Origin: Legionellaceae bacterium
Lineage (GTDB): Bacteria; Pseudomonadota; Gammaproteobacteria; Legionellales; Legionellaceae
DNA length: 41,043 nt
NCBI GenBank assembly: GCA_030696465.1
Contig: JAUYSE010000200.1
Coordinates: forward strand, 1-41,043
Direction: 5' to 3'
Shown: piece after piece, positions 3,136 through 39,707 of the stretch
Position numbering within the stretch: the first letter of the stretch is position 1
Layout of the letters: each line of letters begins with the position of its first letter
Position numbers and translations under genes: made by a program
Notes under the pieces: generated by a model
What the model was told of the DNA's origin: nothing
Databases searched by the model: none
The model's input: only the letters and a program-made list of their open reading frames with translations

Positions 3136-3262
3136 CTATACTCTTCACACTTGCATTTTCGGCGTTGTTGCCAGTTCGCTCGCCATCGGTCATGGACTGC
3201 GAGTACACTCCCTCGGCTCGTTCACTGTCGCCTAGCCGAAAACTCAATTGCTGTGAGTATAT
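3136..3262. mobile_element. Family-1 MITE-like element, full-length intergenic copy (127 bp) between nuoL and nuoM
   Basis: Imperfect terminal inverted repeats: tatactcttcacacttgcattttcggc on the left, and the reverse complement of gccgaaaactcaattgctgtgagtata on the right. It is flanked by the direct repeat cttattggaa (3126-3135) / cttattagaa (3263-3272). Related copies are at 13585-13739, 15069-15153 and 14913-14955. Confidence 0.75.
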
Positions 3263-13202: not shown

Positions 13203-14023
13203 GGCTTCTCTCCTGCTTCGTCGATATAACGACTATCATGACGAATCACTTTCGGCACAGTCACTCTTGGGACAATATCTACAGGTTCGTACACAACACG
13301 TGCCAACGTGGCATCATAACGCATTTCAACATAACCACTCACAGGAAAGTCTTTGCGAAAAGGATGGCCTATAAATCCGTAATCCGTCAAAATACGACGT
13401 AAATCAGGATGGTTGTCAAATAAAATACCAAATAAATCGAAGGCTTCACGCTCAAACCAATTAGCACCTGGCCAAATATCATGAACCGAAGGGATACACA
13501 AATTTGGTTCGTCGAAATATACTTTTACACGTAAGCGATAATTATGAACCGTAGACAATAAGTGATACACCACCGCAAACCGCGGCAACTTCTTCGCAAT
13601 TGAATGATCGGTGTTGTTGCAAGTGCGCTCGCCATCGGTCATGGACACAGAGCTCACTCCCTCGGCTTGCTTGCTTGCACTTTCAGCACTGTTATATGCT
13701 GCTGCTTCTTGCCGAAAATCCCATTGTTGGGAATGCATATCGACATATTCTTTAGGCGCAACACCACGGCAAAAACCTTGGGTTGTAGCTTCCTCAGTTT
13801 CCCAGTCGTATCTTCCATAGCTTAAATAATCAACGGCACATAGATCAATCAGTTGATCAAATGAAAATGTATCTCGCAAGCGCAACAAGGCAGCATGGAT
13901 GGTTGAAACCTCTAACACTAAAGTCAGCTCTCGATATGCCATCACTAACTCTTGAATATCGCTCGAAAATGCTGTGCGGATTTTTTTTTCTAGAGCGCTA
14001 AGCTTTTTATTTATCTGCGTCAT
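13199..14023 (-). CDS. nuoC: NADH-quinone oxidoreductase subunit C, 274 aa, carrying a roughly 45-residue in-frame insertion derived from a family-1 repeat
   Basis: Conserved NuoC blocks are present ([49 protein letters not shown]). I moved the start to the ATG at 14023, which is preceded by the AAGGAG RBS (gtaaggagaaaatagagATG). The track ORF start at 14143 would overlap nuoB by more than 100 nt. Confidence 0.9.
13585..13739. mobile_element. Family-1 MITE-like element copy embedded in frame in nuoC (boundaries +/- 5 bp)
   Basis: The core at 13610-13667 matches 3161-3218 at 50/58 nt by hand alignment. Degenerate ends (acttcttcgcaattgaatgatcgg and gccgaaaatcccattgttgggaatgcata) align to both terminal repeats of the intergenic copies. 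Confidence 0.7.
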
Positions 14024-14912: not shown

Positions 14913-14955
14913 TCTGTGAGTGTATACGCTTCGCAATTGAATTGCTGTGAGTATA
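14913..14955. repeat. Family-1 element remnant (right-end fragments only) between nuoA and tRNA-Leu
   Basis: cgcttcgcaattgaattgctgtgagtata (14927-14955) matches the right end cgcctagtcgaaaattcaattgctgtgagtata of the copy at 15069-15153. It is preceded by a second end-like ctgtgagtgtata. Confidence 0.55.
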
Positions 14956-14976
14956 GACACAGTATGTATTAAAAAA

Positions 14977-15061
14977 TGGTGCCGAAAGCCGGACTCGAAC
15001 CGGCACGGCTTACGCCACCGCCCCCTCAAGACGGCGTGTCTACCAATTCCACCACTTCGGC
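14977..15061 (-). tRNA. leuU: tRNA-Leu, anticodon GAG, 85 nt with long variable arm and encoded CCA
   Basis: The reverse complement reads GCCGAAGTGGTGGAATTGGTAGACACGCCGTCTTGAGGGGGCGGTGGCGTAAGCCGTGCCGGTTCGAGTCCGGCTTTCGGCACCA. It has an acceptor stem GCCGAAG/CTTTCGGC, anticodon stem CCGTC/GGCGG with loop TTGAGGG, and a T-arm GGTTCGAGTCC. The position downstream of secG matches E. coli secG-leuU. Confidence 0.93.
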
Positions 15062-15068
15062 ACAGAAA

Positions 15069-15153
15069 CTACACTCTTCACACTTGAGTTTTCGGCGTTG
15101 TTGCAACCTCTCTCGCTTGCGCCTAGTCGAAAATTCAATTGCTGTGAGTATAC
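15069..15153. mobile_element. Family-1 MITE-like element, short variant (85 bp, internal deletion of about 42 nt) between secG and tRNA-Leu
   Basis: It runs from ctacactcttcacacttgagttttcggcgttgttgca to cgcctagtcgaaaattcaattgctgtgagtatac. Both termini are near-identical to the 3136-3262 copy, and the ends are mutually inverted. Confidence 0.75.
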
Positions 15154-25929: not shown

Positions 25930-26073
25930 TATATAATCACAAGAGTATTATTGCGGAAAAAAGAAAGGGCCAATCAGTGTGTCGCCAATTGACCCAGTGG
26001 AATGACACATAGCAAGTCCAACCTCGCAGCGCGCATAATAAATGTTTTATCGCATCCTCGTCAAGACAAAAAT

Positions 26074-26253
26074 CAGCTATTCCCGCTCAACCCCAAAACG
26101 CTGCCAACAAGGCTTATTGAATAAAGGGCTTTCGTAGACCTTCACCGCGCAAGGACGCGCGGTGAGAGCGTCAGGATGACTTTATGCGTGTTTACGAAAG
26201 CCCTTTATTCAATAAGCCTTGGTACCACTAATATAATCAGGCGGGAATTCCTT
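26074..26253. mobile_element. Family-2 MITE-like element, full copy (180 bp) in the psd/aroQ divergent intergenic region
   Basis: Outer inverted repeat attcccgc (26079-26086) / gcgggaat (26241-26248). Perfect 29-bp inner arms at 26108-26136 and 26193-26221. Central 9-bp hairpin tcaccgcgc/gcgcggtga. Flanked by the 9-bp direct repeat gacaaaaat (26065-26073 and 26254-26262). Confidence 0.8.
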
Positions 26254-26329
26254 GACAAAAATCAGCACCTATAGACAGAATTCGTAATATCAGGCAAAAT
26301 CCCTCATCCTTTTTTTATGGTCATAATAT

Positions 26330-39329: not shown

Positions 39330-39448
39330 AAAAATTACTCCTTTAAATTAGTTTAAAAAACGTCCAAATGCTAACACAACTCTTTTTGGCTTACAAGCTA
39401 GATAGATCAATATATAGTCAATTGTCAACACATCCTAATTAGATTTCT

Positions 39449-39628
39449 CAGCCATTCCCGCCCAACCCCAAAACGCTGCCAAACAAGGCATCCGATAAAA
39501 TTCTTTTCGCAAACCCTCACAACGCATGGACGCGCTGTGAGAGCATCAGGATGATTTTATGCGTGTTTGTGAAAAGAATTTTATCGGAATGCCTTGTTAC
39601 CACTGATATAATTAGGCGGGAATTCCTG
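39449..39628. mobile_element. Family-2 MITE-like element, full copy (180 bp) in the divergent intergenic region between the 181-aa ORF and the 185-aa secreted-protein gene
   Basis: It has the same outer ends as the 26074 copy (cagccattcccgcc ... ggcgggaattcct) and the same central block. It is flanked by the 9-bp direct repeat tagatttct (39440-39448 and 39629-39637). Its inner arms, about 27 bp, are self-complementary but differ in sequence from copy 1. Confidence 0.8.
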
Positions 39629-39707
39629 TAGATTTCTGGCGATGAACGACAAAATCTAAATTAGCGTATATACTTACAGACAAGCTCACTAAACCACCGT
39701 AAAAATT

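Follow-up and report, generated by a model that had tools for sequence, protein, structure and literature searches.

A 180-bp repeat at positions 39449-39628 (plus strand) of contig JAUYSE010000200.1, from a Legionellaceae bacterium, is almost certainly a MITE (miniature inverted-repeat transposable element), that is, a non-autonomous inverted-repeat transposon, and it may carry a structured RNA showing two CsrA-type sites. The whole 41,043-nucleotide stretch that was analysed, a complete contig, is called the window below. The inner part of the element, called the module, consists of a long variable stem around two small hairpins, each presenting a GGA motif in its loop. Taken as a whole, the reading as a MITE-borne structured RNA with two CsrA-type sites is plausible, short of probable, and rests on comparative sequence analysis. 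According to the proposed mechanism, the module would work as RNA once transcribed from neighbouring promoters by read-through, selection would act on the folded single strand bearing the GGA motifs, and the two CsrA-type sites would have a spacing suited to one CsrA dimer. Depending on context, either the adjacent mRNA would be placed under CsrA control or the transcript would act as a small CsrA decoy. The first-pass annotation of the window had described the repeat and its self-complementary arms; it had overlooked that the repeat is a MITE, the conserved core of which recurs in several genomes within differing shells, and that this core holds two small covarying hairpins with a GGA loop on each.

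Anatomy of the element in the window

Direct reading confirmed that the copy at 39449-39628 (copy 2) is 180 bp long and shares its outer ends and central block with a sister copy (copy 1). Copy 2 was also said to have its own 9-bp duplication, and this was found on both sides: the 9-mer TAGATTTCT occupies 39440-39448 on the left and is repeated identically at 39629-39637 on the right. The terminal inverted repeats are CAGCCATTCCCGCC at 39449-39462 and GGCGGGAATTCCTG at 39615-39628, both read on the plus strand. When CAGCCATTCCCGCC was compared with the reverse complement of the right end (CAGGAATTCCCGCC), 12 of 14 positions matched in both full copies. The motif CAGCYATTCCCGCC describes the ends that a partner insertion sequence would share. 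Copy 1, with its duplications, spans 26065-26262 on the plus strand; the element itself, also of 180 bp, lies at 26074-26253 and its module at 26108-26221 (covariance-model score, 99.5 bits). It is bordered by the perfect 9-mer GACAAAAAT at 26065-26073 and 26254-26262. Common to both full copies are the ends CAGCYATTCCCGCY... / ...AGGCGGGAATTCCTK and the central block. A truncated copy on the plus strand runs from 16361 to ~16425 and comprises the left inverted repeat, the spacer and a 5′ arm resembling that of copy 1; it has no core. Two full copies and one truncated copy are thus dispersed over 41 kb.

The target-site duplications are perfect within each full copy and differ between copies (TAGATTTCT versus GACAAAAAT). 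Merely short, non-conserved frames cross the 180 bp, and comparison of the translated element with the protein collection returned no candidate homologue. The element was classified as a MITE because of its small size, its inverted-repeat ends, its perfect and differing duplications, the occurrence of a truncated copy and its lack of coding capacity. These features fit a scenario in which a transposase making 9-bp duplications would mobilise the MITE in trans. No transposase gene was found in the window. The outer ends gave chance matches only in plasmid records, with no partner transposase, and a scan of the genome collection with the left end yielded 13 stretches, all attributed to chance, with no partner insertion sequence among them.

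Divergence of the arms with conservation of pairing

The identity between copy 1 and copy 2 was measured segment by segment. It amounted to 91% in the left end, 67% in the 5′ arm (~32 nt), 86% in the core, 67% in the 3′ arm (~32 nt) and 88% in the right end. Within copy 1, 31 of 32 arm positions are paired, the exception being one G·U; within copy 2, all positions bar one (G·U) are paired, with an additional 1-nt bulge. Hence the earlier observation that the inner arms differ yet remain self-complementary was borne out, with near-perfect pairing in each copy. Among the innermost 18 pairs of the stem, the two copies differ at eight; six of these are changed on both sides, two on one side by way of a G·U, and none is broken. 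The two full copies form the best inverted repeats of the window, the others being chance pairs of 70-82% complementarity. RNA folds were predicted at -77 to -90 kcal/mol (z = -9.5 to -11.9), and none of 200 shuffles did as well. For copy 2, the values were -77 kcal/mol and z = -9.8.

The module in other genomes

To find relatives, metagenomes were scanned with 20 core bases as query. Among the seven matches, real relatives were located on three contigs of sample Ga0209450, from an AT-rich uncultured bacterium. The matches L015, L016 and L020 were rejected as chance, being coding DNA for ...QDEFMRV..., and L017 likewise, being mnmG coding DNA. A BLAST search of plasmid records revealed two module copies in Legionella adelaidensis NCTC12735 'plasmid 9' (NZ_LR134418.1), at 66.8 kb (minus strand) and 79.0 kb (plus strand), 12 kb apart and in opposite orientation. 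This record of 451 kb, labelled a plasmid, carries infA, lepA, rpoD, dnaG, accBC, clpXP, lon, spoT and letS, and is therefore evidently a chromosome segment. The central block is conserved in L. adelaidensis and Ga0209450; the palindromic arms and the outer shells are wholly different. In L. adelaidensis the copies are bare hairpins that lack both inverted-repeat ends and a duplication, and those of Ga0209450 end in TATACTCA...TGAGTATA. By these comparisons, the core is an independent, widely shared module occurring in three outer shells.

A covariance model was built from eight copies. Nine full copies score 81-99 bits with this model, which revealed extra full, contig-cut and degenerate copies. 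In the 21 kb of Ga0209450 contigs seven matches were obtained: five full, one cut by a contig end and one degenerate. The same search found the two copies in 200 kb of L. adelaidensis, where the site upstream of aroQ is empty. No copy turned up in 97 kb of DNA from relatives of the window and of the Ga0209450 organism: 59 kb surrounding mnmE in relatives of the latter (MnmE 64-73% identical) and 38 kb surrounding accC in the nearest relatives of the former. Viral contigs and phage records gave no module match. The degenerate copy (L021, 65-147) no longer has a 3′ arm. It lies directly against the outer end of a further copy (1-47) and adjoins a tRNA gene (200-272); elements seem to nest or to insert side by side in this organism.

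Conserved fold of the module

The module corresponds to the inner ~86-115 nt of the element. In copy 2, on the plus strand, the variable 5′ arm of the long stem P1 (CAAGGC...CAAAC) lies at 39484-39514 and is complementary to 39565-39596, where the 3′ arm (GTTTG...GCCTTG) is found. Hairpin P2 (39516-39541) has a 10-bp stem and the loop AUGGAC, with its GGA at 39528-39530. Hairpin P3 (39545-39555) reads AUCA-GGA-UGAU and presents the second GGA at 39549-39551. The junction UUUAUGCGU, at 39556-39564, connects P3 to the P1 3′ arm and is invariant, or nearly so, in all nine full copies. The general layout of the 5′ half is [P1 arm ending CAAAC]-CUU-[P2, 7-10 bp stem, loop A(N)GGAY]-(A)GAGC, and that of the 3′ half is [P3 NNCA-(N)GGA-UGNN, 4 bp]-UUUAUGCGU-[P1 arm starting GUUUG]. 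P1 is 27-60 bp long depending on the copy, and covaries.

Covariation was evaluated over the nine copies, which come from three genomes. Pairing was observed in 92% of 252 cells, as compared to 70% in shuffles and 35-46% with slid partners. Double changes occurred in 19 of 28 pairs, and none of 500 shuffles reached the observed value in any of the five measures. In P2, six of ten stem pairs are changed on both sides across copies. RNAalifold recovered P1 and P2 and also P3, which was absent from the input model, with 20 of 29 pairs compensated. P3 is paired in 36 of 36 cells, with covariation at two of the four pairs (UA/GC/AU and UA/CG/UG). The idea that the stem is maintained, and not merely inherited, therefore holds up, the architecture recurring in nine copies from three organisms with unrelated arms.

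Conservation of the sequence follows the opposite distribution. Invariant columns make up 22 of 33 unpaired positions versus 11 of 56 paired ones, and such an inverse relation between conservation and pairing is a pattern typical of functional RNA. In all nine copies the GGA of the P2 loop has an unpaired probability of at least 0.85, and the spacing between the two GGA motifs is 21-22 nt despite the differences in P2 length and sequence. With their closing pairs, the tips of P2 and P3 alike read C-A(N)GGAY-G. In the first loop, copy 2 has AUGGAC, copy 1 has AAGGAC and the G-type copies have CAGGAC; the second loop, read with its closing pair, is mostly CAGGAU, two copies having AUGGAU or ACGGAU instead. 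Overall, the data very probably reflect a conserved fold under selection. The best explanation for the covariation of the arms of copies 1 and 2 would be selection acting on the folded strand that bears the GGA motifs.

Strand asymmetry and the form of the folded molecule

Template switching can keep the arms of a DNA palindrome complementary even in the absence of selection, so that covariation alone does not prove an RNA. The two strands were compared. In the predicted folds of the GGA-bearing strand, 36 G·U pairs were counted versus 4 A·C single mismatches. When long stems only were considered, the figures were ~21 to 4, or ~19 to 4 after removal of two events shared by close copies. Since an A·C on the GGA strand is a G·U on the other strand, a double-stranded or strand-neutral process should yield equal numbers. 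In addition, the GGA strand folds better than its complement in six of nine copies, by up to 18 kcal/mol. The asymmetry speaks for RNA, or for single-stranded DNA of this strand, and against a cruciform or gene conversion, although it is not proof in a sample of this size. The first-pass annotation had proposed an RNA or DNA structure or arm-to-arm gene conversion. From this list, a single-stranded form, probably RNA, is retained as the favoured one, whereas the cruciform and gene conversion are disfavoured by the asymmetry. Our preference for RNA as the functional form is a modest one.

Putative CsrA-type sites

The consensus bound by CsrA/RsmE is reportedly (A/U)CANGGANG(U/A), and that obtained by systematic evolution of ligands by exponential enrichment (SELEX) is said to be RUACARGGAUGU. 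As judged by comparison with these sequences, both module loops fit the two consensuses. Binding of CsrA by the module is accordingly proposed with caution only, as something that could be true but to which we give slightly less than an even chance. In Legionella, CsrA recognises A(N)GGA and, as a master regulator of the life cycle, controls the switch from the replicative to the transmissive phase (PMC5338858). CsrA is itself under the control of RsmX, RsmY and RsmZ (PMC5338858).

If the proposal is correct, any gene with the element inserted upstream would come to belong to the CsrA regulon, and the copies together could titrate CsrA. If CsrA were bound, the element would clearly exemplify how transposable DNA can carry a post-transcriptional regulatory site and how a regulon can be rewired by transposition. 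Such rewiring would carry weight because CsrA controls the virulence switch in Legionella.

Resemblance to TwoAYGGAY RNA

Among known motifs, TwoAYGGAY (RF01731) comes nearest to the module. Its published description presents it as an orphan motif of gut metagenomes, Clostridia and gammaproteobacteria with two AYGGAY loops (Weinberg et al. 2010, PMC2864571). Its P1 stem is described as 'often very large' (PMC2864571 supplement), and it has been predicted to bind CsrA (Gardner & Eldai 2015, PMC4333381). One L. adelaidensis copy, L023, aligns over the whole TwoAYGGAY model with 36.5 bits (E = 1e-4), its first loop CA-GGAUG being matched in the TwoAYGGAY alignment. Like TwoAYGGAY, the module has a large closing P1 of poorly conserved sequence around two hairpins with GGA in their terminal loops, and it occurs in gammaproteobacteria. 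The first loop of copy 2, AUGGAC, fits AYGGAY, and an exact AYGGAY is found in the second loop of two module copies (AUGGAU, ACGGAU); the GGA is always in the loop, and the Y is often missing. The junctions differ, except for a common UGCGU before the 3′ strand of P1. The module is further distinguished by its second hairpin, of 4 bp as compared to ~15 bp with tandem G·A pairs in TwoAYGGAY, by its GGA spacing, 21-22 nt versus ~31 nt in the Psychromonas rows of the TwoAYGGAY alignment, and by the location of the window module in a transposon with inverted repeats and target duplication. In the published alignment, conserved flanks are common to five rows of Psychromonas ingrahamii, and in our own reading TwoAYGGAY therefore looks like a dispersed repeat in that organism.

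Scanning the G-type copy L019 alone, or the loci L018, L019, L021 and L022 whole, gave no RF01731 match. At the curated thresholds of Rfam, no family matches the window. Other permissive Rfam matches were microRNA-precursor models and were rejected, as any long hairpin matches these. TwoAYGGAY is assigned to Rfam clan CL00106, which presumably also holds the Csr/Rsm small RNA families. The module may work like TwoAYGGAY and be a distant branch of this motif, lying below the family threshold. A broader proposal, that a mobile element would spread a ready-made two-site CsrA-binding RNA through Legionella-like genomes in at least two transposon shells, as the Legionellales branch of TwoAYGGAY, must be considered rather doubtful. 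Were it true, TwoAYGGAY, to which no function has been assigned since 2010, would gain a testable function, a mode of spread and a link to mobile DNA.

Points against the proposal and alternative explanations

Several observations weigh against a CsrA-binding, TwoAYGGAY-like RNA. The 36.5 bits of L023 are below the RF01731 gathering threshold of 43, and the window copies gave no match to RF01731, either at gathering level or at E<=10. CsrA binding leaves the invariance of the UUUAUGCGU junction unexplained, and known CsrA sponges carry many GGA sites, as compared to two in the module. The covariation counts overstate the number of independent events because some of the nine copies are closely related. 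G·T is the best-tolerated mismatch in single-stranded DNA, so that the strand asymmetry falls short of proving RNA. The element and the DNA next to it showed no conserved promoter or terminator, only weak consensus matches. Roughly one copy in two is convergent or antisense to its flanking genes, and this mixed orientation weakens a purely cis-acting reading. Finally, the spread of the module is patchy, as expected of selfish DNA: 200 kb of L. adelaidensis contain 2 copies and the 97 kb of relatives contain none.

The last point bears on the possibility that the element is purely selfish DNA, whose hairpin and core serve mobility alone, through binding of a transposase or host factor or through a single-stranded DNA intermediate, with no host RNA function. 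Arm complementarity would then be restored by intrastrand template switching or by correction of mismatches inside the palindrome; the correction of quasi-palindromes is a well-established source of mutations. This explanation agrees with the clear target duplications and inverted repeats, with the truncated and degenerate copies, with contigs that break inside copies and with the inconsistent orientation to neighbouring genes. It also agrees with the uneven abundance: seven matches (two partial or degenerate) were obtained in 21 kb of Ga0209450, as compared to two in the 200 kb of L. adelaidensis, and close relatives gave none. However, the same core occurs in three outer shells, one of them without inverted repeats or duplication, which indicates that it is not tied to one transposase. 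Moreover, the P2 and P3 stems covary with invariant loops, the excess of G·U over A·C is unexpected from homogenisation at the DNA level, and the fixed 21-22 nt spacing of the GGA motifs has no obvious role in transposition. Purely selfish DNA is considered unlikely, while deserving serious attention. Even if the element were selfish, a conserved core with free covarying arms in three shells would provide a data set for separating RNA-level selection from palindrome maintenance. The covariation and the G·U evidence support equally a structured RNA that is not a CsrA ligand, such as a processing or stability element for RNase III or RNase E in neighbouring mRNAs, of the kind reported for Correia and ERIC elements, or an RNA that binds a different protein or another RNA via its invariant junctions. 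Near-perfect stems of 30-60 bp are typical RNase III substrates, and the invariant UUUAUGCGU and GAGC junctions, which CsrA does not explain, speak for such an RNA. It would leave unexplained why the loop CA(N)GGAYG recurs in both hairpins with constant spacing, and we regard it as improbable.

A double-stranded DNA element, either a regulatory cruciform or a protein-binding site in promoters (IHF-, Xer/dif- or relaxase nick-like), is suggested by the location of all three window copies in divergent promoter regions. In the core, the minus strand contains ACGCATAA, which we take to be like the XerC arm of dif, and ATCCTG, presumably like the IncP nick site. These resemblances cover 6-8 nt only and the partner half-sites are absent; the strand asymmetry and the occurrence of copies at gene 3′ ends elsewhere also argue against this explanation, as does the lack of plasmid or phage matches besides chromosomal DNA of L. 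adelaidensis. A double-stranded element is thus very improbable. The least credible alternative, to which we attach hardly any weight, is a portable translation start or leader peptide, in which the AGGA containing the second GGA would serve as a Shine-Dalgarno sequence for an AUG located 7-8 nt downstream (AUGCGUGUU, Met-Arg-Val...). The geometry of AGGA and AUG is plausible and AGGAUGAnUUUAUGCGUGUU is conserved in all copies. Against this, the peptides following MRV show no relationship to each other and vary in length (5-45 aa), since the reading frame continues into the variable arm; the protein-collection search returned no protein homologue, and the AGGA is held in hairpin P3.

Comparison with other known systems

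A parallel in general anatomy is QMITE2 of Coxiella burnetii, a member of the same bacterial order. This element measures 150-190 bp and has terminal inverted repeats, direct repeats of 7-11 nt that are unique to each copy, and a very stable hairpin of -85 to -113 kcal/mol (Wachter et al. 2018, PMC5896051). [quoted passage not shown] Compared by description only, the present element agrees with it, with 180 bp, 9-nt direct repeats and -77 to -90 kcal/mol. It differs in that GTAG is found in copy 1 and not in copy 2, and in its GGA loops, which are unreported for QMITE2.

Correia/NEMIS elements of Neisseria and ERIC elements of enterobacteria are small intergenic inverted-repeat elements that are co-transcribed with adjacent genes, giving long RNA hairpins that alter mRNA processing. 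They resemble the present element in being small, non-coding, intergenic and bounded by inverted repeats. Unlike it, they have other ends and duplications (TA for Correia), are conserved as a whole, have no paired GGA loops and do not combine a conserved core with free covarying arms. CsrB, RsmY and RsmZ likewise present GGA motifs in hairpin loops; these are, however, single-copy genes with LetA/GacA-dependent promoters, terminators and 4-20 GGA sites. Identity of the element with a Csr/Rsm small RNA was ruled out by its two GGA motifs, its lack of a terminator-like site, its weak promoter-like matches and its mobile copies. REPINs, which are REP doublets mobilised by RAYT, share the character of dispersed hairpin-forming repeats whose arms evolve with pairing kept; they depend on RAYT and have neither target duplication nor asymmetric core. 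The perfect 9-bp duplications, the asymmetric core and the absence of a RAYT gene from the window ruled out this assignment.

An integron attC site was rejected, as no R''/R' boxes (RYYYAAC ... GTTRRRY) are conserved at the stem bases and the flanks are housekeeping genes. The 6S RNA, hammerhead and other ribozymes, the IS110 bridge RNA and IS200/IS605 ends were dismissed for want of an Rfam match or because the likeness is limited to 6-8 nt. The same applies to dif/Xer and oriT nick sites.

Related repeats and sequence resemblances

Another repeat of the window, 'family 1', is ~130 bp long with ends TATACTCTTCACA...TGTGAGTATA and occurs at 3136-3262, 15070-15153, 14922-14958 and 13583-13667. 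One copy lies between two nuo genes, and another adjoins a tRNA gene (14980-15061, minus strand). The ends of the Ga0209450 copies are of the family-1 kind, so that, from genome to genome, the same shell may occur with or without the GGA module. REP-like palindromes of the form ATTCCCGC-N4-GCGGGAA(T) were noticed near module copies, at ~8650-8672 of L019 and ~3830-3870 of L018. A REP-like palindrome with the spacer GTAG is also present at ~905-930 of L013, an unrelated gammaproteobacterial metagenome-assembled genome. L013 was the sole gammaproteobacterial match of the left-end scan and was rejected, being a mere ATTCCCGC...GCGGGAAT palindrome of this type. The resemblance of the REP-like palindromes to the inverted-repeat core of the MITE (ATTCCCGCC / GGCGGGAAT) hints that the MITE ends may derive from a REP family.

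On its minus strand the core reads N-T-H-K-I/V-I-L, and 39525-39568 of the window resembles 5677-5725 of L017, within mnmG (gidA) of an unrelated GC-rich bacterium. The match is 87% over 46 nt, which exceeds the 21 nt that the search pattern imposed. The likeness is probably due to chance, and an origin of the core in mnmG was set aside accordingly. If Legionella mnmG were similar to the core, the module RNA would be antisense to mnmG.

Host and neighbouring genes

AccC of the window is 80-84% identical to AccC of many Legionella species, which places the host as a deep-branching member of the Legionella group. All six window proteins that were looked up are singletons at 90% identity. The gene content is that of ordinary housekeeping DNA, including the nuo operon, rph, aroQ-accBC and bamA.

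Each of the three window copies is flanked by genes in divergent orientation, namely psd/aroQ, a 181-aa open reading frame/DUF2845, and tpiA/rph. The location in divergent promoter regions reported by the first-pass annotation is thus correct for the window; its significance is doubtful, as half of the copies elsewhere are convergent or antisense. The full copies are found 76-79 nt upstream of aroQ and of the DUF2845 gene, co-oriented with each. Other co-oriented upstream copies are Lade23, 66 nt before lepA, and G19, just before rpe.

At the right junction of copy 1 (26252-26281), a perfect -35 hexamer, TTGACA, arises from the element end CCTT together with the duplicated GACAAAAAT. It stands 18 nt before a weak -10 hexamer, CAGAAT, and faces aroQ. 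As far as these hexamers indicate, this junction could be a hybrid promoter toward aroQ.

The only other public contig encoding the DUF2845 protein is L001 (Logan SRR13727523, 975 bp). Its positions 1-31 begin inside the right end of copy 2, with 100% identity over 31 nt. Judging from this overlap, the start of L001 shows a typical repeat-caused assembly break and the presence of the same insertion in an independent data set.

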